Assembly: GCA_028284465.1 (NCBI GenBank)
Contig: JANQRR010000015.1
Coordinates: forward strand, 17,286 to 81,285
Direction: 5' to 3'
Origin: Gammaproteobacteria bacterium
GTDB lineage: Bacteria > Pseudomonadota > Gammaproteobacteria > JAJFKO01
Length of the DNA: 64,000 nt
This document shows, piece by piece, positions 31,223 through 58,862 of this stretch (position 1 is its first letter; each line of letters starts with the position of its first letter). The position numbers and the translations under genes were made by a program. A model generated the notes under the pieces. The model was not told where the DNA came from. It saw nothing but the letters and a program-made list of their open reading frames with translations, and made no database searches.

Positions 31223-32269
31223 ATGCAAAAGTTTAAAGGAAGTAAGATTTTAGTCGTCGGTGGGGCAGGATTTGTTGGTAGCAATTTAGTAAAAAAACTA
31301 TTAGCCTACGAGCCATTGCAAATAGTGGTCATCGATAATTTATTATCGGCGGAACGAGAAAACCTACCTGAACATAAAGCGTTAAGCTTTATCGAAGGTT
31401 CGATCACTGATGACAAAATTTTACATGAGTTGCAGGATGATTTTGCTTATATATTTCATTTGGCAACATTTCACGGCAATGGCAGCTCGATTCATGATCC
31501 ACTCGCTGATCATGCCAATAATACCTTGACTACTTTAAAATTATTCGAGCATATACACCACTTTAAACAGTTAAAAAAAGTTGTGTATTCCTCGGCTGGC
31601 TGTGTTGCAGCAGAGAAAACTTTTTCCCAAGCACAAGCGACCACTGAAGAAACTATGCCATCGTTGTATCTCGACTCACCCTATCAAATTTCTAAGTTAA
31701 TTGGTGAGTTATATGCAAATTATTATTTTAAACAAAAAGGTTTGCCGGTAGTTAAAGCGCGATTTCAAAATGTTTATGGTCCTGGGGAAGTACTTGGTGC
31801 GGGGCAATGGCGAGGCACACCCGCAACGATCTGGCGCAATGTGGTGCCCATTTTTATTTATCAAAGTCTGCATCAATTAGCATTGACAGTTGAAAATGGT
31901 GGTATTGCTACCCGAGATTTTATTCACGTTGACGATATTTGTCATGGGTTAATGTTGTGTGCTTTAAATGGCGAGCCAGGAGAAAACTATAACCTTGCTA
32001 GTGGCGTAGAGACATCTATCAAAGAGTTAGCCACATTAATTAATCAATTTACTAATAATAACATTCCAATAGCTTTAAAGCCTAAACGTGATTGGGACCA
32101 TTCAGGAATGCGTTATGGTTGTACGGAAAAATCTAAGGATAAATTAGGTTTCGTGGCCACCACCGATTTAGCTGCAGGGCTCCAACAAACGATTGCCTGG
32201 ACTCAAGCTAACATGTCGCGTATTGAAGCATGTATTGCGAAACATTCGCAACATTTAGAGTCTGCTTAA
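31223..32269 (+). CDS. NAD-dependent sugar epimerase/dehydratase (extended SDR), second copy.
   Basis: KILVVGGAGFVGSNL and YQISKLIGE (YxxxK). Confidence 0.8.
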   Translation: MQKFKGSKILVVGGAGFVGSNLVKKLLAYEPLQIVVIDNLLSAERENLPEHKALSFIEGSITDDKILHELQDDFAYIFHLATFHGNGSSIHDPLADHANNTLTTLKLFEHIHHFKQLKKVVYSSAGCVAAEKTFSQAQATTEETMPSLYLDSPYQISKLIGELYANYYFKQKGLPVVKARFQNVYGPGEVLGAGQWRGTPATIWRNVVPIFIYQSLHQLALTVENGGIATRDFIHVDDICHGLMLCALNGEPGENYNLASGVETSIKELATLINQFTNNNIPIALKPKRDWDHSGMRYGCTEKSKDKLGFVATTDLAAGLQQTIAWTQANMSRIEACIAKHSQHLESA

Positions 32270-32271
32270 CT

Positions 32272-43213: not shown

Positions 43214-45217
43214 TTATAAACAATCTAAATTACGATTGATCCATACTTCATGCCAAAGGATGGCATTCATCACGGTCCATAAGTGAAAAGAGTAGCCGCC
43301 ACCTGATCGCATTTGTTGTGATAATAATTTAGTAAAATAATCTTTATTGATAAAACCGGCTTTAACAAGGTCAGATTTATTAAATGCATCTAAACACCGT
43401 TGACCAAAATCAGGTTCTTTAAACCATTTCTCCATCGGCGCGCCAAAACCTTGCTTACGTCGATATAACATATCGTCATCAACAAAGGGCTCAGCAATTT
43501 TTTTCAAAATGGCTTTGCCAATGCCGTTATGCAGTTTATATTCTGCTGGCAAGCGCATCGCAAATTCAACAATATCATGATCTAAAAAAGGCACACGTGC
43601 TTCAATCGAATGTGCCATAGTCATTTTGTCTACCCGCATTAATAAATGTTCAGGTAAACGCAATTTATGTTCCATATAGGGAATTTTTTGTAAAATTTCC
43701 GGTTCAACGAGCTGGCCATTTAAGCTGCCAAGATAATGATTAACAATCGCGTGGCTATCTAATTTGCTATGACTGGCAGGTAACAAATTAGCAACAGGAC
43801 ATTCTAATGATTGCCCAAAGGGAGCTAGATCAGGCGTTAATTGGGAGCGCATATCACCCCACCAGCACACCGCGCCACCCCAAAATAATTGTTGTTGTTG
43901 GCGTGCACGTTGAATAATAGCTTTATCTTCTATGGCTAAGCCGGGCAGTCGATGTTTAGATTTGAATAATAATCTTTGCCACCAAGAAGACTGCTGTTGG
44001 GCGGGTAAATACACGTCTTGATATTTTTTACGGTAATGATCACACCACCAATATCCTAAAAAGTTTTCATCAGCGCCTTCGCCGACTTGCACTACGGTAG
44101 TGCCTTTAGATTTAACTAATTTAGCGAGAAAGTATAAAGGAATACAAACATTGTCAGCGATAGGTTCATCTTGTAGCTGTACTAATAATGGTAAAAAATC
44201 TAATGCTTCTTGCCCATTAATTTGGGTTTCATAATGATCGGTGCGGTAACGTTTAGCAATGCGACGTGCATATTCAAATTCATTAAATTCTTCATGAGTG
44301 GCATAACCTATAGAAAATGTGGTTACCGGTCTATCCATTAACTCACTCATTAAAGCGACGTTTAGACTTGAATCTACGCCACCTGATAATAATACGCCAA
44401 ATGGTACATCAGCTACCATGCGTCGGCTGATCGCTTGACGTAATAAACGTAATAATTCTGCTTCAGCATCGGCTGGTGATAAATCATTAGGAGAATAAGT
44501 AAGTTCACGACTAGGTTTACAATCCCACCATTGCCAGGCGTGCGCGTTGCCTTGATGATTGATCGTGATCCCAAAGCCTGCCGGTAATTTCCAAATACCT
44601 CTAAATAAAGTCATTGGTGCAGGAGTTACAATAAATGTTAAGTAATGCCAAAAAGCAGTATGATCCATTTCGCGAATGACATCCGGATGCGCTAGTAAGG
44701 ATCGTATCTCAGAGCCAAACACCCATTCACCGGTATTGGTGCGGCTAAAATATAATGGTTTAATGCCAATTCGATCGCGTATTAAATGTAATTCTGGTTT
44801 GTCAGGATTACGGCGATCATAAATTGCTATTGAGAACATACCTACAAGTTTAGGCAGCATATCAACATGCCATTCTTCAAAAGCATGCAAAATCACTTCA
44901 GTATCAGAATGATCGGTTTTCCATTGGTATTTGCCAAGTTGCATTAATTCTTGGCGTAATTGTTTATGATTATATATTTCACCATTAAAAACAATAATAA
45001 CGGAATTGTCAGTATTAGCCATTGGTTGTTGCGCGGCATGAGATAAATCAATGATGGATAAACGGCGATGACCGAGGGCACAACGGTGATCAGGCGCGCG
45101 CCATAAGCCGGCATCATCAGGGCCGCGATGAGTCATAGCATCACGCATGTTAATTAGTGTTTGGTTATCAACGACACTTTTGTTTGTTGAACTAAAACAA
45201 CCAATGAATCCACACAT
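43214..45217 (-). CDS. Asparagine-synthase-like glutamine amidotransferase, third copy.
   Basis: The start at 45217 gives MCGFIGCF. HRGPDD, SGGVDSS and the asparagine-synthase C-domain are present. Confidence 0.85.
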   Translation of the reverse strand: MCGFIGCFSSTNKSVVDNQTLINMRDAMTHRGPDDAGLWRAPDHRCALGHRRLSIIDLSHAAQQPMANTDNSVIIVFNGEIYNHKQLRQELMQLGKYQWKTDHSDTEVILHAFEEWHVDMLPKLVGMFSIAIYDRRNPDKPELHLIRDRIGIKPLYFSRTNTGEWVFGSEIRSLLAHPDVIREMDHTAFWHYLTFIVTPAPMTLFRGIWKLPAGFGITINHQGNAHAWQWWDCKPSRELTYSPNDLSPADAEAELLRLLRQAISRRMVADVPFGVLLSGGVDSSLNVALMSELMDRPVTTFSIGYATHEEFNEFEYARRIAKRYRTDHYETQINGQEALDFLPLLVQLQDEPIADNVCIPLYFLAKLVKSKGTTVVQVGEGADENFLGYWWCDHYRKKYQDVYLPAQQQSSWWQRLLFKSKHRLPGLAIEDKAIIQRARQQQQLFWGGAVCWWGDMRSQLTPDLAPFGQSLECPVANLLPASHSKLDSHAIVNHYLGSLNGQLVEPEILQKIPYMEHKLRLPEHLLMRVDKMTMAHSIEARVPFLDHDIVEFAMRLPAEYKLHNGIGKAILKKIAEPFVDDDMLYRRKQGFGAPMEKWFKEPDFGQRCLDAFNKSDLVKAGFINKDYFTKLLSQQMRSGGGYSFHLWTVMNAILWHEVWINRNLDCL

Positions 45218-45224
45218 AAAAAAT

Positions 45225-47291
45225 TTACTCCCAAAATTGATCAGCAAGTTTGCTAGCAGAAGTAATACTAAGTTGGTTTGATACTTGCGGTTGTACTAGC
45301 CATGTTATTTTAGTAATACTAGGATCATTTAATTTTGCAACCAACATTAAAGTTGGTATTCGCTTGCCATAACCGGGCGCGTACCAAGAGTTTTCAACTT
45401 GCCATGATAAATTATCTGTTTGTAATTTAAAGCTATGCTGATCATTGGTGATAATAACTGTGTTATCGCCTAAATCAGCGTTTAAACCAGGATGTAGTAA
45501 TAATTGCCAGCGACGTTTAGATAGGTTATCGCCAGTAAAGATATCATCAACAATCATACTATCGTCGGCTAGTAATAAAATGCGGCGATCATGCTGTTGT
45601 TGATCTTTAGTGAAACGACCATGAACGCCTTGCATGTTATTCATGTGGCGTTTTTCAACAAAAGATGTTTCACCTTGTTGGCGTAAATTAAATAGTACAG
45701 CAGGATCAAATTGATGTTGTTCTTGATCATTGATTAACACGGTATTATGAATAGTGGTGCTGCGATGTTGGTTGCGTGCAGCCGGATCTTGCGTATAAGT
45801 ATAATTTCCAGCATCAACAAACACCGGTTGTTGTTGGTAGCACCATTCTATGGATAATTGATCACAATGCTTATGATTGCCAACGCCATCGGTGCCTGGC
45901 CCAAGATTGGCAAAAGTGAGATGGCTTTGTGGTGATTGCAGCACAGCAATGCCACTAGTTGGATAAACTTGTGGATTTGTCGATGAAAATTGCTTGGTAT
46001 CGATATCAACTGTAGGCCAGCAGCATTCACTCACTTGGTTAGTTTTAGCAATGTTAGCGCTAAACGCAGGTAACGAAAATACTTTCGCTGCCGCAACAAA
46101 TAAATGATCAAAAGAATCTGTTTGCCAATGTTGGTATTGCGCAAAGATATGCGCACGCGCATTATCCGCATCTCCAATTTGCGCGACACGGCTGCTTGGC
46201 TGGCGTAAGCTATGTAAAAATTGTAATCCAAGTAATAAGCGTTGTTTGTAATTCTCAGATAACGGGAGTTTAGCATGCTGAGATAAGGCATAAGCCGATA
46301 AAAACATTTCAAGCATAAAACGGTGATAAGACAAGCTAGATTCGTAAGGGCCACCGTCAGTGAGAATTTGTCGTGTAATTTGTTGTTGTAAACCAGTTTC
46401 AGCAATACCTCGCCACACACAAGCGGCATCTAGGTGTGGGAAATTGAGAGCAAGCCAATACAAACCAAAAAAATTAGCCACACCATGGTTAGAAACAATC
46501 AGTTTGCCATGGAAAGTACCATATTCAAGATTTGCCACCATAAAACGGCCATGCATCACTAAGCTTTTTAGCAGGCGGCGCCACCAAAGGTATGTTAAAG
46601 TTTTGGAATGTTGAAAAAAGTTTAGTGCTGCTAACCAACCAACAATACGTAAACTAACATCCATATTACAAGCCCAATGCACGCCAAAACCGACAGGATT
46701 TTTGCGAATAAAATCCATAATGATGTTGGCAAAGTAACGCGCGTAACGTTCATCTCCTGTCAACCAATAGGCTTGACCAATGGTTACTAAATGTTGACAG
46801 CGAGTGATTTCCCAAGGGCCTTTTATATCGGCATTGCGAGAATTTTTTTGTGTAGCTTGATACCAACGCCAATGATTGAATAATTGTGGGAATTGTTGTT
46901 TAGTAATGGGATCTTTACGCCAATTAAGTTGCCAGCCATGAGCTTGGGAAGAACGACGCATATCGACACTACCACCCCCTAAAATGTCAAACTTACCTTT
47001 AAGTAATTCATTAGCAGTTTCAATAATAATGTTAACTTGTTGTGGATATTCTTTTTTTAACGTAGCAATAAATGTATGTTGATCGGTAGGAAGAAAATTC
47101 CGTTGACCGAAATGTCCTAAGCGTTGCGCAATGACATATTGCTTAAAGCTGCTGATCCCCATTCGCTTTAATATTGCAGTCATTTCGCCATCACTGGGCA
47201 AGCGTTGTAAAAAATAATGTTTACATTCCCACAGCCGTAATTGTAAATAATCCAAGCTATTACAGCAGGCTTGTGCAATTTGTCTGATCAT
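45225..47291 (-). CDS. Heparinase II/III-like (alginate-lyase superfamily) protein, 688 aa.
   Basis: WHLHYFD-like N-terminal region (WQLNWRKD), W..N.DV.LRIV.W, GG..ESS.SYH blocks typical of Hepar_II_III family proteins found in polysaccharide loci. Confidence 0.7.
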   Translation of the reverse strand: MIRQIAQACCNSLDYLQLRLWECKHYFLQRLPSDGEMTAILKRMGISSFKQYVIAQRLGHFGQRNFLPTDQHTFIATLKKEYPQQVNIIIETANELLKGKFDILGGGSVDMRRSSQAHGWQLNWRKDPITKQQFPQLFNHWRWYQATQKNSRNADIKGPWEITRCQHLVTIGQAYWLTGDERYARYFANIIMDFIRKNPVGFGVHWACNMDVSLRIVGWLAALNFFQHSKTLTYLWWRRLLKSLVMHGRFMVANLEYGTFHGKLIVSNHGVANFFGLYWLALNFPHLDAACVWRGIAETGLQQQITRQILTDGGPYESSLSYHRFMLEMFLSAYALSQHAKLPLSENYKQRLLLGLQFLHSLRQPSSRVAQIGDADNARAHIFAQYQHWQTDSFDHLFVAAAKVFSLPAFSANIAKTNQVSECCWPTVDIDTKQFSSTNPQVYPTSGIAVLQSPQSHLTFANLGPGTDGVGNHKHCDQLSIEWCYQQQPVFVDAGNYTYTQDPAARNQHRSTTIHNTVLINDQEQHQFDPAVLFNLRQQGETSFVEKRHMNNMQGVHGRFTKDQQQHDRRILLLADDSMIVDDIFTGDNLSKRRWQLLLHPGLNADLGDNTVIITNDQHSFKLQTDNLSWQVENSWYAPGYGKRIPTLMLVAKLNDPSITKITWLVQPQVSNQLSITSASKLADQFWE

Positions 47292-50035
47292 GATATCGGT
47301 TTAGTTGCTTTAATCACTAAATTCCAACCGCAGCATTTACCTAATAAATTTATTGGCAACCAACGTAGAATTCTTGGCAATTCAGCTCTCATAAGTTGAC
47401 GTTGAATAATATGAATGTTATCGAAGTCGCTAAATAACCCGCGCAAACGTCTTTTGCTATAGACTTTAACTAAAGGACGGGCGTCATTCTCAGCTAACTC
47501 AACTCGACGTGACATGATTTCACCGATTGAATAATTGTTCGTTAATTTTTTTTCAAACCATTCAACACCGACTAAATTTTTCCAAAAATGATAAGAGTTT
47601 TGCGCATACACCATTATGATAACTTTACCACCGGGCTTTAATACCCGATACATTTCTTTAACAATTTTTGCAGTATTAGGTGAATGATGAATGACACCGT
47701 TACTATAAACCACATCGAATGTATTATCGGCGAATGGCATATTTTCAGCATCACCGTGATGAAATTCACCGGTTAAGTTACGCAGTTTAAAGTTGGTTTT
47801 TGCATGTGCTAAATGTCCTGATGATAAATCTAGATCTGTAACTAAAGCACCGTGTTTAGCAAATTGTGCCAGATCGGTGCCAATGCCGCCGCCAACTTCT
47901 AATACTTTCTCACCAGCATGTTGATCAAATTCCATATCGTGTAATAACCATGGACCATATTCTTGATAGCGGTAACGCTCAACTTCTTCAAACCAAGGTA
48001 ACGTGTAAAGCTCGATCCCATTAACATATTGACTACCACAAGGATTGTTATCCCATTGAGCTTGCACTTGATGTTTATAATGATCATCTGCTAATTCATT
48101 TTTTTGATCGACATCAACCAGTAATGTTTGACGTTGGTCAATAGGTAAAAGCGTATGAATTTTGCTAAGGTAGGATTTCGATAAAACGTCTGGTAATAAA
48201 TATTTACTTGGTTCTTTTCGATAAAGAAAATTCCATAAGCGGGTAACGTGATGTTGCCAGCTATATGTTGTTAATACTGCTTGGCGTGCATTCTTACCTA
48301 ATTGTTCACAAATAGTTTGATGATTGATCAGAAATTCAATTGCACTAATGAAATGTTTGCGATTACCAGGCTGACAGAGAATAGCTCTTTGCTGATCAAC
48401 AGTTGTTGTTGAAGATAAATTATCAGCAAATAATGCAGGTCTAAGAACGTTGCCTATCTGCATGAGGTCACTAGCGATAATGCCTGTGCCCAGTGCCATA
48501 TATTCAAATAACTTGGTGGGTGAACCAAAAAATTTAGTGGATTGCATATGGGTTGCATGCGGGCAAAGAAAAATATCACAGGTTTGTAAATGATGAAGTG
48601 CTTTGTCAGGTGCTATCAAGCCAGTGATATGGACTTGATCATCAAGCTTATGTTTAGCAATGGCTGCATCGATTAAATGGCGCAAACTACCATCACCGAT
48701 TAATAAAAATTTGACATGAGTGTGTTGTTGACAAATATTAGGTATGAGATCGGCAAGTACATCTATGCCATGCCAAGCACCGAAAGTACCCGTAAAACCA
48801 ATAACAATATCGTTAGCTTGCCAACCTAAAGCAAGTTTATTTTGTGCTTTTGCGGCAGTGGTGATTGGTTTGAAAATATCAGGATCGGCACCATTTGGGT
48901 TTACTAAGATTTTTTCACTCGATACACCACGCTCGATTAGTTCAAGCGCTACGACATCTGAGACGACATTGATGGCAGAAGCTTGCTTAAATGCAGCCAT
49001 TTCTGCATCTAAAAACAATTGTTCATTTGTGTAAGTATGGTTATTGAAAGAACGTTGCATCGTTAATTCAGAGCCATTATATTCAACAATATAAGGGATA
49101 TTTAATTCTTTACTTAAGTAAGCCCCTAAATAATTACCTAAGCAAATTCTTTCGTAAATAAAAGCCGGCGCAATAGCAGCAAGTTCTGATTTCAGCTTGG
49201 TATAATAATGGCTGTTAGCAAGTAGTAATTTGCTTTCTGCTTGGGATTTAAGATTTTTTAACACGACTTGTTTGATGTTCATATCATCTAACATTTTAAA
49301 ACGAGAGCCTATAAACACAGTTAGCTCAGCACAATGTTTTTGTAATTCTTTAGCGACATAGCAGGTATGGCTATAAGAACCACCGGCAGTAAGTTTTGCC
49401 CAGAAATCTAACCGCAAATAAACACCTTTTTTGGCTTCAGTTGCTTGCAGCGGGATTGGTGAGCAAGATGATAATAGTTCTGCTAAGTCTTTTGCAATTT
49501 CAGCGTTAGGTTGTTTAAACTTACGCAATAAAGTAGTACGCAAATTAGCAGGCAAAATATTTAAAGATTTGCGCAGCATAAATTTTGTTAACCAAAATGC
49601 CTTATGGGCAGCAGCTTTATAACTATGTAAGTAAAATAGTTTGTTAATATGACGTAACCAAAAAAAATTGCGGCTAATTTTTAAAAAGCACAAAAACAGC
49701 CAGATCTGTTGATAAGTATCCAAACGTTCTTTATCGATAACTTCAATCGCTTCTTCTTGTGGCCAGTAGAACCAAAGTTGCAATTGTTGCTGCTGAATAG
49801 TTTTGGCAAGTTCTAAATATTTTTTGTGAGGTGCGCCACCATTAATAGCAATAACAACGCCAGCACAATCATGCTGTTTGATCGCATGTACAATATCGTT
49901 GCAAGGTTTGAGCTTCGGAATAGCAATATTAATTTGATGACGTTCACTAAACTGAGTTAATCGATCATTGTTAATGATCCCGGCTTGGTTATCGTCGTGA
50001 GAATAATAAAGATAGTTATGTGCTTGGTTATTCAT
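47288..50035 (-). CDS. Bifunctional GT4 glycosyltransferase and C-terminal class-I SAM methyltransferase (about 915 aa).
   Basis: GT4 E-x7-E region FFGSPTKLFEYMALGTGIIASD, then VLEVGGGIGTDL and LKPGGKVII methyltransferase motifs. The start was set at ATG 50035 (MNNQAH...), 2 nt after the upstream stop; the longer ORF would overlap the upstream gene by 196 nt. Confidence 0.7.
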   Translation of the reverse strand: MNNQAHNYLYYSHDDNQAGIINNDRLTQFSERHQINIAIPKLKPCNDIVHAIKQHDCAGVVIAINGGAPHKKYLELAKTIQQQQLQLWFYWPQEEAIEVIDKERLDTYQQIWLFLCFLKISRNFFWLRHINKLFYLHSYKAAAHKAFWLTKFMLRKSLNILPANLRTTLLRKFKQPNAEIAKDLAELLSSCSPIPLQATEAKKGVYLRLDFWAKLTAGGSYSHTCYVAKELQKHCAELTVFIGSRFKMLDDMNIKQVVLKNLKSQAESKLLLANSHYYTKLKSELAAIAPAFIYERICLGNYLGAYLSKELNIPYIVEYNGSELTMQRSFNNHTYTNEQLFLDAEMAAFKQASAINVVSDVVALELIERGVSSEKILVNPNGADPDIFKPITTAAKAQNKLALGWQANDIVIGFTGTFGAWHGIDVLADLIPNICQQHTHVKFLLIGDGSLRHLIDAAIAKHKLDDQVHITGLIAPDKALHHLQTCDIFLCPHATHMQSTKFFGSPTKLFEYMALGTGIIASDLMQIGNVLRPALFADNLSSTTTVDQQRAILCQPGNRKHFISAIEFLINHQTICEQLGKNARQAVLTTYSWQHHVTRLWNFLYRKEPSKYLLPDVLSKSYLSKIHTLLPIDQRQTLLVDVDQKNELADDHYKHQVQAQWDNNPCGSQYVNGIELYTLPWFEEVERYRYQEYGPWLLHDMEFDQHAGEKVLEVGGGIGTDLAQFAKHGALVTDLDLSSGHLAHAKTNFKLRNLTGEFHHGDAENMPFADNTFDVVYSNGVIHHSPNTAKIVKEMYRVLKPGGKVIIMVYAQNSYHFWKNLVGVEWFEKKLTNNYSIGEIMSRRVELAENDARPLVKVYSKRRLRGLFSDFDNIHIIQRQLMRAELPRILRWLPINLLGKCCGWNLVIKATKPIS

Positions 50036-52313
50036 GATTGTCAATAGTTTCCTTGTTAAAAATAAGATCATCAATTCGTAAAGCCACAGCAGTGGTTTCA
50101 ATAATTTCGGCATAAGGAATAGGTGCAGCTTGTTGCTGCTTAATAGCCTTGCCCAAAGCAAGCAACTCATTAAAATGACCTTTGTCAGTATCACCACGCC
50201 ATAATACTGTGCCATCGCTAGCACGCGTTAAGCTTTGATAATCATCTAGAATATATGCTTCGCCATCGACAAATACTTCAATATATTCTTTAGGCAAGCC
50301 TTGTTTAGGGCCTAACGCGGTATACATAAGATTAGCGATGCTGCCATCTTCATAGCCTAGTGTTGCTATGAAATTATCATTCTTTAAATAAGGCAGTTTG
50401 CCGGGAGTAATCGCTTGAGCGGTAATGTGATTTACCGGAGCGTCGGCAAGATAGCGAAAACAATCGTACATATGACAGGCTTCACCTAAGTTGCGGCCGC
50501 CACCTTGTTGGTTTTGGATCCAATGATCCGGTTTAATGTAACCACCATTTAAGCGATAATTAATCATTAATGGAGAAGTGCGGTTTGTCAAAATACGTTT
50601 TAATTTTTGCATCGCTGGCGAAAAACGTCGATTAAAACCAACCATAAGCAATGGTGGATTTGTTAACGCGGAATATGTTTCATTGATCTCATGTAATTCT
50701 TCCCAGGTTAACGCTAGTGGTTTTTCTACAAAGATATGTTTATTCGCTTGTAAACCAGCGATCACTTGTTTAGCGTGATCACAATGTCGGGTAGCAATCA
50801 CTAGTAAATCACAGTCATCATTTGTTAATACCGGTGCAAGTTCACTGGCAAAAATTTCTAATTGATGAGTGCGCACATAATTGCCGCCACGGACGGCATC
50901 GCGACTAACAATACCTTGCAAAAAGAATAAATTATCGCATTTTGCCATTTGTGGTACTAGCATTGCTGTGCCAAAAGCGCCAGCGCCAACTAAGATATAA
51001 TTAATTTTATCACGCTGTGGTTTACGATGGCCGTGTAAACGGATCAAGGTGGCGTCAGCAGGCTGAGGTGATGGCATAGTTTCTTGAGGGTATTCAATCA
51101 TCACGCCAAGTAAACTTTGCTTGCGATCATTCAAAAGTTGTTTATAGGTTGCTGGTGCTTCATCAAGCGTAATCGTTTTATCAATTATTTTATCAATGTT
51201 AATTTGTCCACGAGCGATTAATTCCATATAGGCTTGCATGTTGCGATTGCTGGTCCAGCGTACATAAGCATAGGGATAATCACGGCCTTGTTCTTCATAA
51301 CTTGGATCATAACGCCCAGGTCCATAAGACGAACTGATCAACAAGGTAATTTCTTTTTTATAAAAATGTTGACGTTTAACGTGTAAGCCGACATCACCAA
51401 CGATAACAACGGTGCCTTTGCGGCGAGTTATTTCCATTGCTGAATTAATAACGTGATCCGATTTAGTCGCTGCAGTGATGAGAGTGCGATCAGCACCGTG
51501 ACCTTGCGTGGCATTGTTGATAAGTTTAACTAACGTTTTATTATCACTGCAGCCAGCATTCATGCCAAGATCTAATGCGCGTTGTACGCGTTCGGCAGAT
51601 AAATCCATACCAATTACATAACAACCATTAGCACGTAGCATTTGGATAGTTAACTGACCTAATAAACCAAGGCCAATAACTACAATAGTTTCACCAAGAG
51701 TAGGTTGTGCCTGGCGTATGCCTTGTAACGCAATGGTGCCTAAGGTAGTTGAAGCGGCTGCTTTAACATCACAACCTGATGGAATAGGACAGACTAAATT
51801 ACGTGGCACGCTGATATATTCTGCGTGGTTAGCACAGCCTGCGCCAGCACAAGCAACTAATTCACCCGGCGCAATATCATTAATACCATCACCCACAGCA
51901 ATGACTTCACCTGCAGCTGAATAGCCGACATTCCAACCCATAGCAAGCATTTCATCCGCTTGCACATCCATTTCTTCAGCGCTTAACTCATCAGGAGCAG
52001 CATTGGTGGCGACGGCAGCGAATGCTTTAGCTTTCACTCGACGCGCAATTAGACGGAGTCTTTCGGCAGCTTTTTGCGGATCACGAATAGCTTTGCCCAG
52101 ATACATACGAGCGAGGTTGGTATAATTCTTAGCTTTAGCAATAGGTGTCACATTCGGTGTTTGCGCAGTGCTGGTGGTCCGTAAACTCGCTAATTCAGTT
52201 CCTGGACTTATCATTGAATAATGAACTTTGATCAATATATTGCCAGGCGTGGCGCTCGGAGCGGGCATTCGGGCAATTAACGCCCCTGAACTGTTAAGCA
52301 GGATCTGCTTCAT
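50028..52313 (-). CDS. Bi-domain oxidoreductase: N-terminal zinc-type alcohol dehydrogenase (MDR) domain fused to a C-terminal Gfo/Idh/MocA domain.
   Basis: The start at 52313 (MKQILLNSSG...) parallels MKQVVQNLKTG of the 58965 paralogue. GLGLLGQLTIQMLRANGCYVIGMDL (MDR Rossmann) and INYILVGAGAFG ... HIFVEKP (GFO/IDH). Confidence 0.75.
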   Translation of the reverse strand: MKQILLNSSGALIARMPAPSATPGNILIKVHYSMISPGTELASLRTTSTAQTPNVTPIAKAKNYTNLARMYLGKAIRDPQKAAERLRLIARRVKAKAFAAVATNAAPDELSAEEMDVQADEMLAMGWNVGYSAAGEVIAVGDGINDIAPGELVACAGAGCANHAEYISVPRNLVCPIPSGCDVKAAASTTLGTIALQGIRQAQPTLGETIVVIGLGLLGQLTIQMLRANGCYVIGMDLSAERVQRALDLGMNAGCSDNKTLVKLINNATQGHGADRTLITAATKSDHVINSAMEITRRKGTVVIVGDVGLHVKRQHFYKKEITLLISSSYGPGRYDPSYEEQGRDYPYAYVRWTSNRNMQAYMELIARGQINIDKIIDKTITLDEAPATYKQLLNDRKQSLLGVMIEYPQETMPSPQPADATLIRLHGHRKPQRDKINYILVGAGAFGTAMLVPQMAKCDNLFFLQGIVSRDAVRGGNYVRTHQLEIFASELAPVLTNDDCDLLVIATRHCDHAKQVIAGLQANKHIFVEKPLALTWEELHEINETYSALTNPPLLMVGFNRRFSPAMQKLKRILTNRTSPLMINYRLNGGYIKPDHWIQNQQGGGRNLGEACHMYDCFRYLADAPVNHITAQAITPGKLPYLKNDNFIATLGYEDGSIANLMYTALGPKQGLPKEYIEVFVDGEAYILDDYQSLTRASDGTVLWRGDTDKGHFNELLALGKAIKQQQAAPIPYAEIIETTAVALRIDDLIFNKETIDNHE

Positions 52314-52416
52314 TCTTGCTTGTTCCTTATTAAAAGTGGGCATTTTAGCATATTTTGCCAAGCGAGTAAGTGATGTTACGATAGAGTGAGCTGGAAGCAT
52401 AAGGCGAGGAGAATGG

Positions 52417-54021
52417 ATGCAAACAGAATTTCGTCAATTATTGAAAAAATCCGCGGTTGCGTTATTAGTTGGTATCCCATTATTTGTTATTTCCATGTTG
52501 GATCTTACGGCAGTAACACCTGGTATTAACCAAATCATCTGGATCATTGTTGGTTGCATCGTATTTTTAATCATGCTCTATTCGGGTAGGCATTTTTATA
52601 TCGGTGCTTGGCTGGCATTTAAATCGCATAATGCCAATATGAATACCTTAGTTTCAGTTGCGACTGGCCCAGCTTGGTTATATTCAATGATTGTTTCTAT
52701 TTGGCCAAGCTTATTGCCACCATTAGCCCGCCATGTTTATTTTGATACGCCAATGACAGTGATTGGTTTATTGGTGTTAGGCGCGGCTCTAGAATTACGC
52801 GCAGGTGAAAAAACGGCTGAGGGCATTAAACAATTGGCTGAACTCCAACCTAGCCAAGCGCAGCTTATAAAAAATGATCATAAACAACAAACGCGGATCG
52901 AGCGAATTACGATTGGCGATATCATTGAAGTGCGACCTGAAGAAACTATCCCCATGGATGGAATTATTGTTACTGGCACTACTCAAGTTAACGCTGCTAA
53001 ATTATCGCCACTGCAACAATTAGTCGCAAAAAATGTTGCTGATAAAGTTTATGCTGGCACGGTTAATGTAACAAATAAAATCCGCATTAAAGTGTTAACG
53101 ACATATAAAAATAATGCAGTGAATGTTATTGTCGATCAGCTTAAGCAATCCCAGAATACTAAACCCGCTATTAGTAAAATCGCTGATAAAGTCGCTGGTA
53201 TTTTCAGCCCATTTGTATTAATCGTATCTTTTATTACTGCGATGGTGTGGATGAGCTTTGGGCCATCGCCACAGATTGCCTACATGTTAACAACTTTTAT
53301 GGCAGTGTTATTGATCGCGTGTCCATGTGCGCTTGGGTTGGCGGCGCCAATTTCAGTAGCAGTGGGTTTAAGTAAAGCTGCGCATTGGGGAGTATTGTTG
53401 CGTCAAAGTGATGCGTTACAAGCGATGAAAAGTATTACAACTTTAGTGATTGATCAACTTGGCAAAGATGCCAAATTTGTTGTTAATAAGTTACAAAAGC
53501 GCAAGCTCAAGATTATTTATTTAGCAACAACCCAAGAACAACAACTTGAAGAGCAATTATCACAACTGGGTATTACAGAAATTAAGCGAGTGAATAATGC
53601 CAATGAAATCGTTGATTTTATTACAGCGTTAAAGGATAAAAATGAAATCGTTGGTGCATTGAGTGATGGTGTGCACAACAAAGATTTATTAGAAGCGGCT
53701 AATGTTGGTATTGCCTTAGGTATGGAATCTTACAAAGCAACATCAGCCGATGTTGCCATCATAGGTGAGTCATTTTACGGTTTATTAGATGCGTTCACTA
53801 TTGCCAAAGCGACTTTAAGTAACATTAAGCAAAATTTAACAGGAGCATTTATTTATAATAGTTTAGGCATTCCAATCGCAGCTGGTGTGTTTTATCCGCT
53901 CGTCGGTAAATTGTTAAATCCTATACTCGCTGGTGCACTGATGGCGTCATCATCGTTGGTGGTGATCCTAAATGCTAATCGTTTGCGTTTAGTTAAGCCG
54001 CTCAGGGAGAAGCAAAAATGA
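52417..54021 (+). CDS. P1B-type (CopA-like) ATPase homologue with degenerate catalytic motifs and no N-terminal metal-binding domain. Probable pseudo-ATPase.
   Basis: The TM core with CPC (res 302-304) is retained. DKTGT is replaced by DQLGK (res 345-349), TGES by SPLQ, and GDGxNDxP by SDGVHNKD. The N-domain is only about 60 aa and has no HP motif. Confidence 0.7.
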   Translation: MQTEFRQLLKKSAVALLVGIPLFVISMLDLTAVTPGINQIIWIIVGCIVFLIMLYSGRHFYIGAWLAFKSHNANMNTLVSVATGPAWLYSMIVSIWPSLLPPLARHVYFDTPMTVIGLLVLGAALELRAGEKTAEGIKQLAELQPSQAQLIKNDHKQQTRIERITIGDIIEVRPEETIPMDGIIVTGTTQVNAAKLSPLQQLVAKNVADKVYAGTVNVTNKIRIKVLTTYKNNAVNVIVDQLKQSQNTKPAISKIADKVAGIFSPFVLIVSFITAMVWMSFGPSPQIAYMLTTFMAVLLIACPCALGLAAPISVAVGLSKAAHWGVLLRQSDALQAMKSITTLVIDQLGKDAKFVVNKLQKRKLKIIYLATTQEQQLEEQLSQLGITEIKRVNNANEIVDFITALKDKNEIVGALSDGVHNKDLLEAANVGIALGMESYKATSADVAIIGESFYGLLDAFTIAKATLSNIKQNLTGAFIYNSLGIPIAAGVFYPLVGKLLNPILAGALMASSSLVVILNANRLRLVKPLREKQK

Positions 54022-54650
54022 TTATCGGGATTAACATTACTTTAGCAGTTTTGATTTTATTTACCATTTGGTGGTTTTGGCTGTATAAACCCAAAGGCGG
54101 CAAAGTAGTTACCACAGGCAAAGTGACTATTGAAGTAGCTGGTGGCGTTTATAAGCCTGATATTATTCGTGTCCAAGCTGGGCAAACGTTGCGTTTGCAA
54201 ATCATTTTAAAAGACGATGCTGGTTGTGCACGTACCTTGCTTTTTCCGGAGCTGCAAGTTAGTAAAGAACTTATAAAAGATAAAACTGTAGAATTGACGA
54301 TCACGCCAGATAAAGTCGGTGAATATAGTTTTGCTTGTCCAATGAATATGTACAAAGGTAAGTTAATCGTCACTGAACCAGCACCACAAGATATCATTAT
54401 CGCAGCAGGTGCTTATCAGCCAAGCCAGATCCAAGCACGCGTTGGCCAACAAATTCAGCTGCGGTTTATTCGTAAAGATCCAAGTAAATGTGCGGAAGTG
54501 GTAAACTTTCCTGATTTTAATATTGCTGAAGAAATTCCTTTAGCAGAGCCAAAAGTCATTCGTATTACTCCAACCAAGCCTGGCGAGTATCCCTTTAGTT
54601 GTTCGATGGGGATGTATCGCGGCAAGCTAATCGTCACAAATAAATCCTAA
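54018..54650 (+). CDS. Membrane-anchored protein with two tandem cupredoxin-like domains.
   Basis: N-terminal TM helix, then two roughly 90-aa repeats each ending F[AS]C[PS]M.MY[KR]GKLIVT. These resemble the Cupredoxin_1-type domains often fused to or adjacent to CopA, but without the His ligand. Overlaps the upstream gene by 4 nt. Confidence 0.55.
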   Translation: MIIGINITLAVLILFTIWWFWLYKPKGGKVVTTGKVTIEVAGGVYKPDIIRVQAGQTLRLQIILKDDAGCARTLLFPELQVSKELIKDKTVELTITPDKVGEYSFACPMNMYKGKLIVTEPAPQDIIIAAGAYQPSQIQARVGQQIQLRFIRKDPSKCAEVVNFPDFNIAEEIPLAEPKVIRITPTKPGEYPFSCSMGMYRGKLIVTNKS

Positions 54651-54776: not shown

Positions 54777-56834
54777 ATGCCTAAAAACAATAATAGGCGT
54801 GGAAGAAGCGGAAAGAGCAAGCAATCAAAAGAAAAATCAAGAAAAAAGCAATTATCATCATATGCGACTCCTGAAAGCCGAGTAAAATTGCGACGATCGC
54901 AAAAACGATATCAGCAAGCTAATGCACAGTTCCATCAGCTTATAGCTACTGATCTAATGTTGTTAACAACAATATTTCTATTATGTTTTGCTGATAATCC
55001 ATACCAGCAGACAATAGATTTTCTACTTGCAGGCGGTATTAGTGACGCATTAAATGATTGGGAAGTGCCAGAAGGTTTACATTACACTATTATATATTCC
55101 TTTATATTAATGCTGGCAGTGACTGTGCCTAACGTTGCTAGAATGTTTTATAAAAAATTAATAGCATTATTTTCACGTCATTTATTTTCAGGAGAGGTAG
55201 AGTCAGCAAGTGCAACAGATTTCCTTTGGGACCAATTGACTGCTGAACAAATTAATAGAGAAACAGGGCTGCTTACCAAAGCAACTGAAATTAAAATTAG
55301 CCGAGCAGATAAGCTTTTGCTTGGCAACTATGCCTTTTTTGCTATCACACAAATTTTTAAAAATCTCGTTATTAACTTAGAAGATCAACAAGCGTTAGTG
55401 GATTCATGGAATAATCCATTATTAGTAGCTGGGGATCAATTGTTGGTGTGCGGTGTTTCTTTTATAGTGACTAATAGGGTATATCTGTTATATAGAAGAC
55501 TAACTGGATATGCTTTTGATTCTGCGAAAGCATTACAGAAACTTCAAAGGATCACTAGTAAATTACATGACGATATAAAATTTAGCTATAAAAATATAAG
55601 TGCTGTAGAAACATGGCGTCAAATGTATGCTTTGCCATTTGCAGGGATTGCTCAGCTAGATGAACGATATGTTTTTGTATTAAGGACAACGTGGGCAAAA
55701 AACATTAGCATAGATGCAAAGATTCTGGTGACTAATGTGTTAGGGGTTTTTTTAGAAAAATCGCCTCATATTAAAGTTCTCGTGGCGAATCAACATGCGA
55801 TGCTCATTTCTATAGAAAATAAACATTTCACTAAAAAACTAGCGCATGAAAAACAACAGCTAAAAGAAAATATTCAGTATGCAATGGAAAACTTGTCTAA
55901 AATGCAACAGCTGAATGATAATCTTAATTTTCGTCTTAGAGTGCTTTCAGGTAGTGATCCTAATAGTTACTCTGAACTAAAATATCATGTAGATAGTGTT
56001 ACAGGTAAGCCGGAATTTAATTTGATCATAAAAATAGGTGGGCTATTGCTTAATAGCGTAGTCAAATTGCGAAAAAACTCCCAAGATGCTTTCCCAAAAA
56101 ATTCCATGTTAATTCTTCATAACAAACTTGCTATTTTTAATATAGAAGATGTTGATTATACCCAAAAAAAATTGCAAAGTCTGTTTTCAAGACATCAGCC
56201 CAGGCTAGGAAGTTTTTCCAAAGCCGCAGAAAAAGCAGAACCTGCAAAAAAACAACCAAAAAAAAGAAAACCCAAAACGAAGAAAGGTAAAGAAAAAGTT
56301 TCGCATCAAACTTTTGAAGAAAAATATAATACTAAGCATAATTTTTTTGTGCATGATCGTCCATGGTTGAGTTTGTATCATCATAATGTTGTAAGAAAAA
56401 AACCAGCTAGTAAGCGGGATCAGCAACTGGCTTATTCAAAAAAGCTAAAGACAATCCAAATTAGAATTGAAGGAGAAAGCAAGACACACACGGTAAAAGC
56501 TAAAAATTTTCATTTTTTAAATCAAACTGATCAGATCCATAAATCTTCAAACACTTTTGTTTGGGTTGATGCAAAAAATACAGGTTTCCAATACTTTAAG
56601 CGCCAGACAAAAAAGGGTGCATTCTGGATAAGAGCGAAGGAATTAGGCAGGGCTGCTGCAACTTGTGCATCCAAAGGTAAGCAAGGCATCAAGTTGCTTA
56701 ATAAAACACAATGTGAAATCAAAGTAATAGGAAAACAAAGAATTGATGGGGTATTGGTAAATGCTACAATAGGTGATGATCCTACTGTTTATAAAGTATG
56801 GCGACTTGGTGTCGGTTGGCATAATAGTAAATAA
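54777..56834 (+). CDS. Hypothetical 685-aa lysine-rich protein with N-proximal TM segments and a basic KKQPKKRKPKTKKGKEK tract. Effector-like.
   Basis: Long ORF with a basic low-complexity N-terminus, 3-4 hydrophobic helices and no recognisable enzymatic motifs. Confidence 0.6.
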   Translation: MPKNNNRRGRSGKSKQSKEKSRKKQLSSYATPESRVKLRRSQKRYQQANAQFHQLIATDLMLLTTIFLLCFADNPYQQTIDFLLAGGISDALNDWEVPEGLHYTIIYSFILMLAVTVPNVARMFYKKLIALFSRHLFSGEVESASATDFLWDQLTAEQINRETGLLTKATEIKISRADKLLLGNYAFFAITQIFKNLVINLEDQQALVDSWNNPLLVAGDQLLVCGVSFIVTNRVYLLYRRLTGYAFDSAKALQKLQRITSKLHDDIKFSYKNISAVETWRQMYALPFAGIAQLDERYVFVLRTTWAKNISIDAKILVTNVLGVFLEKSPHIKVLVANQHAMLISIENKHFTKKLAHEKQQLKENIQYAMENLSKMQQLNDNLNFRLRVLSGSDPNSYSELKYHVDSVTGKPEFNLIIKIGGLLLNSVVKLRKNSQDAFPKNSMLILHNKLAIFNIEDVDYTQKKLQSLFSRHQPRLGSFSKAAEKAEPAKKQPKKRKPKTKKGKEKVSHQTFEEKYNTKHNFFVHDRPWLSLYHHNVVRKKPASKRDQQLAYSKKLKTIQIRIEGESKTHTVKAKNFHFLNQTDQIHKSSNTFVWVDAKNTGFQYFKRQTKKGAFWIRAKELGRAAATCASKGKQGIKLLNKTQCEIKVIGKQRIDGVLVNATIGDDPTVYKVWRLGVGWHNSK

Positions 56835-56846
56835 TAAGTTTTAAGT

Positions 56847-58862
56847 TTAAGGTTTTGTGCTCAGATTGATGATCAGCGGTTGTTCAAGCTTACCCATTCG
56901 TTGCCAAACAAGTTGCTGACTTGCTACAACAATGCCATAGCTTGGTGAAATTCGCGTGGGTTCGATTGTCATTTGCCAATCAGCCACATTATGCCACTGC
57001 AATCTAAAAGGTTTGTGGTTTTTAATTAATTCAATAATGCCATTATCAATAATATTGATATTTACACCAGGTGCTAAATGTAACGGAATTCGCAGATGAT
57101 GTTCACCTACACCACTAAATTCATCTTTAATCATTAATTGATGCAGTTGATGATCTAATTTAAGAGTGCGTTTGAGGGTAACTGGTTTAGGTAAACGTTG
57201 GTAACCGGTATGCGAGCCAATAAAAATAGTATGTTGTTGAGTGGTTTCCCAATGCTGAACTATAGGCTTAGCGTCATAGTGTAAATGCCAAAGATGGCGT
57301 TCATCAATAAAGCGATTAATTTCTGCATGGTCCACTTGTGGAGTATTGTGATAAGCAGTCGATCGAAAAAGATTACGATCACTTGGTGATGCAGTATAAA
57401 CATAAGCACCGCAATCGCTGATCAATAATTCATGATCGAGCATGGCTGCAAATGCTAAACAATCATTATGGCCATGGCCGCCGCGACCGGCTAAACCAAT
57501 CGGCCCGCAGTCAATAAATACATGATCGCAATCATTTTGCATAATATAAAAACCACCTTGTTCGAAAGCAATTGATTGTGGCATGATAGTTTGCTCAGAG
57601 GTGGATGATGTTGCAGCAGCTTCACCTAGCCACCAAAATAATTCATTCGCATTAGCAGTGCCAATAGCTTGTAATGTAGGATCATTAAAAGTATGGCCAA
57701 CTAAGCCGCAGAGGTAACGGTGATCTGTTAAAGCTTGATCGCCAAAAGCTAAGGTGCGAGCATCATCAGCATCACCCCATAATGGTGTGCTGCCATCACA
57801 ACGTGAATACGCTTTGGTAAAATATGCCATATTGATCAAGCGTTGCTGATATTGTTCACTGATCGGCAATTGTTGCGCCTGGCGATATAACGCTGGTAAT
57901 AAAAATAACTCTAATACCAAGCGATGATAAGCAATTGATGCTTCGTAATCGACACCATCAGCAAATACTTGCAATTCAATTTCAGTTGTTAAAATATGCC
58001 ATCCAAGTTGTTGCCAACGTTGCGCAGTTTTGCTGGTATTAAAAAACAATCCCGCGACAACTAAACCGGCGGCATCGGCGGTATAGTGATTTCCGTTAAC
58101 ATCGGATTGTTCTAAATGTTTAGCAGTAAATTCTGCATGTAAAAATAAGCTTTGCAGAAATTGGGTTTGAAAAGCAGGATCTTGCCAAGCAGGGCTTGCA
58201 TTAAATACTTGAAATAGCCATGTCCAAGTGATGATCCGCAAAGCGACTTCCATAGTGCAAGCCCAATTGACACTATAAGCATAAGGGTTTTGTACAATCC
58301 AATCAGCAATGATATCTTTAGCTGCTTGTGAATAGCGCTCATCATGCGTTAATAAATAAGCTTGGCCAAGTGGCATAAGCCATTGCATGCGAGAGATCTC
58401 CCACGGAATTTTAATATCACTGGCATCCTCAAAATTACAGATAGTGATATCAGCAAAAAATTTTGGTTGCCAGCGTACGTTAGTTTTATAATCTCGATGC
58501 CAATCAATTCGTTCGCCTAGATCAATTAATCCAGTGCCTAGCAAATCAACTTTATGAGCTAATGCAAGTTCAGCTTTGGCAACAATAGTAGTGCTTGCTT
58601 GAGGGAATCGGTCGCTAAATTGCTGGCAATCATTGGCAGAGATAACAGCAGGGTAAGGTTGCTTTGCTAAGGTTTGCCATAAAGTGGCAAGATCAGGCAG
58701 GTTGGTAGCTTGCAGTAAATATTTTAAATTAAATTTAGTAGCATAACGTGGTGCATAATAGCGCTCAAATTGAATGCGACTTTCTTGATAGAGTCGTTTA
58801 GCAATAATATGCGGTGGTTTACGTAATCCACGTTTGATTTTTTTGAGCAGATTATATGGCAT
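56847..58862 (-). CDS. Heparinase II/III-like protein, 671 aa, paralogue of 45225-47291.
   Basis: Shares W.CNMDV.LRIV.W / WACTMEVALRII.W, GG.YESS.SYH / YEASIAYH, HGH.D blocks with the 688-aa copy. Confidence 0.7.
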   Translation of the reverse strand: MPYNLLKKIKRGLRKPPHIIAKRLYQESRIQFERYYAPRYATKFNLKYLLQATNLPDLATLWQTLAKQPYPAVISANDCQQFSDRFPQASTTIVAKAELALAHKVDLLGTGLIDLGERIDWHRDYKTNVRWQPKFFADITICNFEDASDIKIPWEISRMQWLMPLGQAYLLTHDERYSQAAKDIIADWIVQNPYAYSVNWACTMEVALRIITWTWLFQVFNASPAWQDPAFQTQFLQSLFLHAEFTAKHLEQSDVNGNHYTADAAGLVVAGLFFNTSKTAQRWQQLGWHILTTEIELQVFADGVDYEASIAYHRLVLELFLLPALYRQAQQLPISEQYQQRLINMAYFTKAYSRCDGSTPLWGDADDARTLAFGDQALTDHRYLCGLVGHTFNDPTLQAIGTANANELFWWLGEAAATSSTSEQTIMPQSIAFEQGGFYIMQNDCDHVFIDCGPIGLAGRGGHGHNDCLAFAAMLDHELLISDCGAYVYTASPSDRNLFRSTAYHNTPQVDHAEINRFIDERHLWHLHYDAKPIVQHWETTQQHTIFIGSHTGYQRLPKPVTLKRTLKLDHQLHQLMIKDEFSGVGEHHLRIPLHLAPGVNINIIDNGIIELIKNHKPFRLQWHNVADWQMTIEPTRISPSYGIVVASQQLVWQRMGKLEQPLIINLSTKP

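Follow-up and report, generated by a model that had tools for sequence, protein, structure and literature searches.

What remains of a copper pump once its catalytic machinery has been lost, and why is the remainder kept? This question is raised by two overlapping genes in a stretch of 64,000 nucleotides (nt) from a Gammaproteobacteria bacterium (assembly GCA_028284465.1, contig JANQRR010000015.1, positions 17,286 to 81,285 of the forward strand), which in its full length is referred to as the window and to which all coordinates refer unless another locus is named. The upstream gene encodes a relative of the Cu(I)-transporting P1B-type ATPase CopA, and the downstream gene a small protein with two cupredoxin-like domains. 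P-type ATPases are defined by a cycle that runs through a phospho-aspartate. The CopA-like protein belongs to a rare family, here termed the dead-pump family, which as a whole clade appears to have abandoned this cycle with its ion path still under strong selection. The open reading frame (ORF) listing of the window contains both genes exactly where a preliminary description of this DNA, made from the sequence alone, had placed them, including the 4-nt coupling.

52417-54021, plus strand: ORF of 534 amino acids (aa), predicted catalytically dead CopA-like membrane protein ("pseudo-pump") with helices MA, MB, and M1-M6 and the folds of the A-domain and P-domain, without HMA and without N-domain
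54004-54008, plus strand: Shine-Dalgarno sequence GGGAG, 8-9 nt before the second ATG
54018-54021, plus strand: start/stop overlap ATGA, translational coupling of the pseudo-pump and chaperone genes
54018-54650, plus strand: ORF of 210 aa, putative membrane-tethered tandem CupA-type Cu(I) chaperone (Pfam Cupredoxin_1 twice, E=7e-44)

Loss of the Catalytic Machinery

The 534-aa protein matches CopA of Legionella pneumophila (LpCopA, 3rfu) far beyond chance (E=4.6e-90) in two blocks, with residues 4-350 aligned to CopA 77-430 and residues 338-526 to CopA 544-734. Among the Pfam models only E1-E2_ATPase is recognized (residues 142-323), no Hydrolase/HAD and no HMA match was obtained from Pfam, and the NCBIfam scores fall far short of the CopA cut-offs. 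Because the two-block alignment skips both the HMA domain and the nucleotide-binding (N-) domain, and given the Pfam result, both are considered missing. In case of the N-domain, LpCopA ~431-555 (about 115-125 residues) is without a counterpart and no SEHP/HP motif is present. The preliminary description had likewise reported the lack of N-terminal HMA domains, in agreement with Pfam and the LpCopA alignment. It had also considered the N-domain to be reduced to about 60 aa; this has to be corrected, as the ~65 residues between DQLGK and SDGVHNKD represent the second half of the P-domain.

Motifs were placed by HMMER and MAFFT alignments to LpCopA and canonical CopAs and are given in LpCopA numbering.

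52822-53166, plus strand: A-domain fold with dead TGE loop (Pfam E1-E2_ATPase, residues 142-323)
53005-53013, plus strand: S197-P-L in place of T277-G-E of LpCopA (alignment)
53383-53790, plus strand: Rossmann-like P-domain remnant with D346-QLGK, followed immediately by the point of the N-domain deletion, and with S416-DGVHNKD
53452-53466, plus strand: D346-QLGK in place of D426-KTGT of LpCopA (alignment)
53662-53685, plus strand: S416-DGVHNKD in place of G623-DGVND of LpCopA (alignment)
Within the 534-aa protein: A-T-T in place of T577-G-D of LpCopA (alignment)

All motifs are positioned unambiguously by these alignments, and a misplacement of motifs, raised in the preliminary description as the point on which its reading could fail, was thus rejected. 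Its view of a P1B-ATPase homologue with dead catalytic motifs and a retained membrane metal site agrees with the alignment to the Legionella protein.

Across the dead-pump family the sequence of the TGE loop varies, and the TGD and GDGxND positions are degenerate in every member. The phospho-acceptor position is occupied by D, D, T, T, T, T, D, and E in the eight core members and by N, L, and T in the members L135, P0131, and P0123, respectively. As this aspartate is not conserved across the family, D346 of the window protein carries no functional weight: the replacement of DKTGT by DQLGK with a kept aspartate, as previously described, is correct for the window protein, but the kept aspartate is not meaningful. 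Hence, DKTGT, the N-domain, TGE, and TGD together with GDGxND, all four of them hallmarks of a working P-type ATPase, are lost, and the membrane signature alone is left. Due to the lack of a nucleotide-binding domain and of a usable phosphorylation site, the CopA-like protein is predicted to be incapable of the P-type (Post-Albers) cycle, and neither ATP-driven Cu(I) transport nor a phosphoenzyme is predicted.

Conservation of the Cu(I) Path

The P1B-1 membrane signature of the 534-aa protein is complete, comprising C302-P-C304, Y480-N481, M509..S512-S513, and the MA/MB helices.

52417-52821, plus strand: MA, MB (platform), M1, and M2, with M75 and E126 (LpCopA entry residues M148 and E205) and D110 (LpCopA exit residue E189); residues invariant in the family
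53320-53328, plus strand: C302-P-C304, Cu(I) ligands of M4; invariant in the eight core members, in L135, and in canonical CopA
53791-53994, plus strand: helices M5-M6 with Y480-N481 (53854-53859) and M509..S512-S513 (53941-53955), the remaining Cu(I) ligands; invariant in the family

The residues which we take, from the LpCopA structure papers, to form the Cu(I) route include the exit residue E189. Equivalents of the entry residues M148, E205, and D337 as well as of the sites C382-P-C384 with Y688, and N689 with M717 and S721, are invariant in the family, and E189 is an aspartate in all members. The entry triad and both transmembrane sites of LpCopA are also backed by a review (PMC7558416). 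In a region-by-region comparison, each transmembrane helix and each periplasmic loop is conserved in the family at the level observed for 63 canonical CopAs, whereas identity within the A-domain is 0.32 in the family versus 0.71 in canonical CopA, and within the P-domain 0.27 versus 0.74.

Substitutions specific for the family are fixed in M1 (G82A, T85P), M2 (A112P, I114T, N120V), M4 just before CPC (T294F, T296A, I299L), and M6 (A508L). M1, M2, M4, and M6 line the release pathway, and the clusters of substitutions in these helices hint at an altered gating.

In the AlphaFold2 (AF2) model of the 534-aa protein (pLDDT, the predicted local distance difference test score, 88.3; pTM, the predicted template modelling score, 0.83), eight transmembrane helices are combined with an A-domain rich in beta-strands and a P-domain that is compact and Rossmann-like. 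The closest superposition was obtained with E1 structures in the inward-open state, with template modelling scores (TM-scores) of 0.89-0.90 for 7r0g and 0.84-0.86 for HMA4 and ATP7B in E1, compared to 0.56-0.61 for E2P and E2 structures. As an indicator of state, the E1-like model would be weak evidence.

The Partner Protein

54021-54083, plus strand: N-terminal transmembrane anchor (residues 2-22), followed by an invariant W-F-x-x-x-K-P-K-x-x-K; predicted N-out/C-in
54120-54374, plus strand: CupA-like domain 1 with ligands C70 (54225-54227) and C107-P-M-N-M111 (54336-54350)
54387-54638, plus strand: CupA-like domain 2 with ligands C158 (54489-54491) and C195-S-M-G-M199 (54600-54614)

The single anchor and the two cupredoxin-like domains with similar ends, as noted in the preliminary description, agree with Pfam and the sequence: the two Cupredoxin_1 stretches end in CPMNMYKGKLIVT and CSMGMYRGKLIVT, respectively, and the domains share 42% identity. 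The Cys...CxMxM ligand set is invariant in eight orthologues. Domain 2 matches CupA of Streptococcus pneumoniae (2mry/4f2e) with E=1.7e-15 and the N-terminal CupA-like domain of pneumococcal CopA (4f2f) with E=3e-11. Foldseek gave 4f2e as best hit (TM-score 0.82, root mean square deviation 2.1 A), and 4f2f reached a TM-score of 0.79. The AF2 model (pLDDT 87.8) consists of an N-terminal helix, a flexible linker, and two beta-domains. Thus, ligands and fold identify the partner as a tandem CupA-type chaperone predicted to bind Cu(I).

Neither of the two domains contains a histidine, and a type-1 copper site is for this reason impossible. The anchor lacks a basic residue in front of it, i.e., a basic n-region, and is followed by the invariant KPKxxK. 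Applying the positive-inside rule to these anchor charges, the cupredoxin domains probably face the cytoplasm, as in CupA. Matches to pseudoazurin and NosZ remain far under their cut-offs. A periplasmic type-1 (blue) copper electron carrier was therefore rejected, given the missing histidine, the CupA ligands, the absent basic n-region, and the opposite anchor charge, and the periplasmic copper-protein-like partner previously proposed has to be abandoned for the same reasons and because of the CupA-like fold.

Occurrence, Phylogeny, and Selection of the Dead-Pump Family

A search of 5.8 billion proteins retrieved seven short proteins (535-549 aa) with 99% query coverage and 45-50% identity, and thousands of full-length CopAs with just 65% query coverage. 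Four further sequences came from an exhaustive screen with a profile, covering 1.84 billion cluster representatives, and from a partner-based search, namely the fragment P0123, the divergent P0131, P0128, which still has an N-domain, and a 427-aa member in locus L135. Members of the family are very scarce (a handful among the 1.84 billion representatives), and uncultured gammaproteobacteria are their sole known source.

In neighbour-joining trees the eight core members are monophyletic in 100 out of 100 bootstraps, likewise with transmembrane columns alone, and all 11 members form one clade in 58 out of 60 bootstraps. Divergence within the family amounts to 0.48 substitutions per site in the transmembrane core and 1.64 in the soluble domains, compared to 0.38 and 0.31, respectively, in canonical CopAs. 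For the closest pair, Nei-Gojobori estimates of omega are about 0.05 in the transmembrane core and about 0.19 in the soluble domains, and for other pairs 0.26-0.46 in the soluble part, all of which are rough values since dS is near saturation. By these estimates, neither the transmembrane nor the soluble partition appears to evolve neutrally, and the P-domain region still seems to be under purifying selection.

The frame is intact in no fewer than 11 independent assemblies. The CopA-like protein is, as far as can be read from its sequence and that of its relatives, a long-lived, selected protein unable to form a phosphoenzyme. Retention of the degenerate motifs in orthologues, regarded in the preliminary description as a sign of function instead of decay, is in good agreement with the clade, the omega values, and the invariant path. 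A recent pseudogene, or an intact copA at the same place in relatives, was rejected, as orthologues, phylogeny, and dN/dS oppose it and the relatives lack an intact copA there.

Probable Stepwise Domain Loss

Taken together, the members represent a deletion series: one has a dead N-domain, most are without an N-domain, and one is without N- and A-domains. P0128 (521 aa, cut by the contig end), which nests beside P0002 at a distance of 0.24, retains the dead N-domain with DQTGI for DKTGT, ADNP for SEHP, and SHN for TGD, and the end-points of the N-domain deletion differ slightly among lineages. This intermediate and the differing end-points suggest that catalysis died first and that the N-domain may then have been shed more than once.

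At the far end of the series, the L135 member (L135:6740-8023, plus strand, 427 aa; tandem CupA-type gene at 8001-8627, 23-nt overlap) lacks the N-domain, the beta-core of the A-domain (window residues ~138-223), and part of the P-domain, and no Pfam model matches it. Its transmembrane core is 44-57% identical to the window protein and every residue of the Cu path is present. Since L135 keeps the membrane domain and the chaperone after losing the A-domain and N-domain, the function of the family presumably resides in these two parts.

The L135 member adjoins an ATP-synthase operon with AtpR and gene-1. Clean N-domain deletions also arose independently in two separate CopA lineages, P0169 (732 aa, two HMA domains, high GC) and P0189 (616 aa, one HMA domain), in which DKTGT is replaced by DARDT and DGLDD, respectively, and GDGxND is kept.

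Genomic Context and Ancestry of the Gene Pair

In all 10 family loci with downstream sequence, the cupredoxin gene is situated directly downstream of the ATPase-like gene, either overlapping or spaced by at most 13 nt, and thus the tight coupling to a copper-protein partner noted for the window holds throughout. Nine of these partners have two domains; the exception is the single-domain partner of L051. Flanking genes are unrelated in all family loci, and one host chromosome (OY968770.1) has a size of only 2.17 Mb.

With the partner alignment as query, 123 loci were obtained from species-representative genomes and from metagenomes, and 118 of these contain a small C...CxMxM ORF. Outside the family, all complete neighbouring ATPases carry DKTGT, TGE, CPC, GDGxND, and SEHP (60 out of 60 complete ORFs in one set), and in about 100 non-family loci a cupA-like gene adjoins an intact CopA. 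The module is, by this comparison, a derived form of a widespread copA-cupA operon, in which the pump would have lost its motor and the chaperone domain would have been duplicated; the pairing as such has its counterpart there and is not unprecedented. CupA has been stated to be confined to a few streptococci (2020 review, PMC7558416), and the occurrence of CupA-type chaperones next to CopA in many proteobacteria is wider than that review describes. Single-domain, membrane-anchored CupA-like genes were observed directly 3' of intact CopA in many proteobacteria (L010-L047, L057-L134), e.g., Mariprofundus ferrooxydans PV-1 (L047), a metagenome-assembled genome of the Coxiellaceae (L015), Trinickia (L018), Hyphomicrobiaceae (L025), and many marine metagenomes.

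Two family loci contain further copper genes. In L050, a CueR-like MerR regulator gene (5457-5861; TIGR02044 110 bits, under cut-off; C-x8-C loop) is located upstream, together with a MerR-type promoter (5940-5975) consisting of TTGACC and a 19-nt spacer with an ACCTT-N12-AAGGT dyad. Another palindrome, CTTTAACC-CTAA-GGTTAAAG, is situated ahead of the regulator gene and was observed in L050 alone. A CueR operator in front of every family operon was rejected, as it is present only in L050 and neither in the window nor in other loci. In L053, an intact HMA-CopA gene lies directly downstream, so that the dead gene, the tandem CupA-type gene, and the HMA-CopA gene are arranged head to tail on one strand. 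This CopA was rejected as direct ancestor of the family because it is not its sister (1 out of 60 bootstraps).

Upstream of the window operon, no MerR/CueR-type dyad or operator was found. A consensus scan resulted in a single candidate:

52355-52382, plus strand: sigma-70-like promoter candidate, TTGCCA-16-TACGAT with extended TG

It constitutes weak evidence, since such sites are not found above shuffled expectation. The divergent ORF 50028-52400 begins just 16 nt from the start at 52417 and overlaps ORF 47288-50224 by ~197 nt (50028-50224). Probably a downstream Met (around 52313) is its true start, which would give a divergent promoter region of ~100 nt (52313-52400 plus the gap).

Possible Functions of the Module

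With some reserve, we consider it probable that the core of the module is a relay, in which Cu(I) is exchanged between the tethered chaperone and the transmembrane sites independently of ATP. The roles considered in the preliminary description (passive metal channel or sensor, chaperone dock, and regulatory pseudo-enzyme) are narrowed by this reading, but not to a single one. The tandem chaperone would capture cytoplasmic Cu(I) at the membrane, with one binuclear Cu(I) site per CupA-type domain, facing the cytoplasm, provided that Cu(I) is bound as in CupA, and would swap Cu(I) with the transmembrane sites without ATP. Cu(I) may then pass through the protein, in a direction set by the acceptors on each side and the membrane potential. 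Homology, the loss of catalytic residues, the pattern of conservation, the pairing of the genes, and the CupA-type ligands are shown by the sequences, whereas we infer the topology, the Cu(I) binding, the transfer from chaperone to membrane, and any net translocation. Direct loading of the CopA transmembrane sites by chaperones via the entry platform, without ATP, has been described, as has binding of Cu(I) by these sites at about 1e-15 M, i.e., in the femtomolar range (PMC7558416). A copper context for the relay is given by the CueR-like regulator in L050 and the intact HMA-CopA in L053.

Whether Cu(I) traverses the membrane is a separate matter. An ATP-independent conduit, in which the P1B membrane domain passes Cu(I) between the tethered cytoplasmic chaperone and the periplasm, is proposed here tentatively, as possible and still doubtful. 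In this scenario, abandonment of the Post-Albers cycle would have been followed by a stepwise loss of the N-domain, of the catalytic residues, and even of the A-domain. Passage is favoured over a store because both membrane faces are conserved as in working pumps, i.e., the exit aspartate and the periplasmic loops are kept, and because substitutions accumulate in M1, M2, M4, and M6 and the A-domain is dispensable. Several points weigh against relay and passage. All family members derive from uncultured bacteria, and we know of no natural precedent for ATP-independent passage of ions via the membrane domain of a P-type ATPase. Passive efflux of Cu+ would oppose the membrane potential unless periplasmic sinks keep the Cu(I) activity very low, and a passive influx would be hard to reconcile with the CueR-like regulator of one locus. 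The periplasmic loops could have been conserved for the sake of folding or stability instead of ion exit, and a relay leaves unexplained why purifying selection (omega <0.5) still acts on the A- and P-domains of most members. Furthermore, the E1-like preference of the AF2 model is no evidence of a cellular state, and regulator and CopA neighbour were observed in one locus each.

A store without translocation would make use of much of the same evidence. The protein, locked in E1, would take up to two Cu(I) from a chaperone holding up to four and act as a membrane Cu(I) buffer, a tethered sink that lowers cytoplasmic Cu(I) under copper stress. Established features of CopA, namely ATP-independent loading and the femtomolar affinity of the transmembrane sites (PMC7558416), are in line with this idea, as are the doubled capacity due to duplication of the CupA domain, the E1-like AF2 model, and the CueR-like regulator in one locus. 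We nevertheless regard it as unlikely, since the exit aspartate is found in all members and the periplasmic loops are conserved at the level of canonical pumps, since the substitutions clustered in the helices of the release pathway hint at altered gating, and since more than 500 residues and eight helices are a costly way of binding two ions. Pseudoenzymes often regulate active paralogues, and the dead paralogue and its chaperone may accordingly dock on a real CopA or another partner as a scaffold or copper sensor. The head-to-tail arrangement of dead gene, tandem CupA-type gene, and intact HMA-CopA in L053 would be consistent with such an accessory or regulatory subunit, and A- and P-domain folds under purifying selection could serve protein-protein contacts. 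However, 9 out of 10 loci lack a CopA in the flanks read, the CopA of L053 is not the sister of the family (1 out of 60 bootstraps), the A-domain is gone in the L135 member, and the strict conservation of the entire ion path would be left unexplained, so that a subunit of this kind appears quite improbable.

Retained A- and P-domain folds in most members might also point to an active pump whose N-domain or phosphorylation is supplied in trans, or which uses another energy source. This is very improbable considering that the phospho-acceptor aspartate is replaced by Thr, Asn, or Leu in most members, that TGD and GDGxND for Mg2+/phosphate binding are gone, that the flanks of the family loci share no gene which could encode such a partner, and that one member is without an A-domain; an N-domain in trans in particular was rejected due to the phospho-aspartate itself missing in most members. 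Least credible, to a degree that it can hardly be entertained, is a functionless decaying copA pseudogene or an assembly artefact. Loss of every catalytic motif, the rarity of the family, and the isolated N-domain-less CopAs of other lineages (P0169, P0189) would be compatible with decay. They stand against undisrupted ORFs from 11 or more independent assemblies, with 45-50% identity, monophyly, (rough) omega values of 0.05 in the transmembrane core and 0.19 in the soluble domains of the closest pair, invariant Cu-path residues, conserved gene pairing and coupling, and retention of the module in a 2.17-Mb chromosome.

Surroundings in the Window

The gene pair is located within a polysaccharide-synthesis locus of ~40 kb (window ~22000-63000), which shows striking paralogy; some further ORFs of the window are listed with it. 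By its rpsA, whose best non-self hit reaches 73%, the host is an uncultured, deep-branching gammaproteobacterium.

26820-28721, 32230-34179, and 43214-45247: three asparagine-synthase-like genes
45225-47291, 56847-58862, and 61091-62755: heparinase II/III-like genes, three or four
47288-50224: glycosyltransferase-methyltransferase fusion, 978 aa
50028-52400 and 58965-61097: two ADH_zinc_N-GFO/IDH/MocA fusion proteins
54777-56834, plus strand: ORF of 685 aa with Lys/Arg-rich N-terminal and central stretches; GC 0.33-0.35, under that of its surroundings
5000-10384 and 10848-13007, both minus strand: ORFs of 1794 aa and 719 aa, respectively, without Pfam domains
13378-16050, plus strand: 890-aa protein with ankyrin repeats

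Around the pair, a search for insertion scars revealed no flanking direct or inverted repeats, no transfer RNA, and no GC anomaly, and mobile-element boundaries were therefore rejected. Of the proposed insertion into a lipopolysaccharide locus, the location in a polysaccharide-synthesis locus is retained, but the insertion event is not, as scars are lacking. In case of the 685-aa ORF, no Pfam, NCBIfam, or PHROGs match was obtained and the protein is a singleton in a collection of 15 billion proteins. It was rejected as a third component of the module because no other family locus contains it and because a promoter-like site of its own is present. The large ORFs and the ankyrin repeats, together with the 2.17-Mb chromosome of a relative, hint at a host-associated lifestyle.

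Comparison with Known Systems

In its presumed mechanism, the module comes closest to copper trafficking by CopA and CupA. In the literature searched, we came across no account of a conserved P1B family that is catalytically dead or devoid of the N-domain, in accordance with the preliminary description, in which no described family was recognized. In one survey, DKTGT was present in 99.77% of P-type ATPases, and the 0.23% with point mutations, the meaning of which is unknown, were treated as possible errors (PMC3896382). The existence of the dead-pump family suggests that, even without its motor, the membrane part of such a pump still serves a purpose. It could show what the membrane domain of a copper pump does alone, how copper is transferred from chaperone to membrane without energy input, and how pseudo-transporters evolve; due to its rarity, its ecological weight is probably small.

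The CopAs of L. pneumophila (3rfu/4bbj) and Archaeoglobus fulgidus (7r0g) share with the family the eight transmembrane helices with MA, MB, and the platform, the A- and P-folds, the identical entry triad, the CPC/YN/MxxSS sites, and the conserved periplasmic loops. In contrast, HMA, N-domain, and catalytic motifs are lacking in the family and E189 is fixed as Asp. Compared to the transmembrane core, its soluble domains have a rate of evolution higher by a factor of about 3-4, whereas the two rates are about equal in canonical CopA.

The cupA-copA system of S. pneumoniae likewise comprises two CupA-type domains, of which one is located on CupA and one is fused to CopA, while here both reside on one tethered polypeptide. 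Different from S. pneumoniae, the ATPase gene precedes the chaperone gene, as in other proteobacteria, and the ATPase is dead. Proteobacterial copA-cupA operons agree with the module in gene order, tight spacing, the N-terminal anchor motif, and the C...CxMxM ligands, and differ from it by an intact ATPase with all five motifs and a single-domain chaperone. Their CopAs are about as close to the dead-pump family as the other canonical CopAs sampled.

Outside the P1B-type ATPases, the ABC proteins CFTR and SUR and the palytoxin-opened Na,K-ATPase are transporter scaffolds whose pathway runs without the ancestral energy-coupled cycle. These cases belong to other families, CFTR still binds and hydrolyses ATP, and the palytoxin effect is pharmacological and did not evolve. 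If the proposed conduit is true, it would represent the first natural conversion of a P-type ATPase to an ion conduit independent of ATP, a transition of the same kind as that of CFTR within the ABC transporters.

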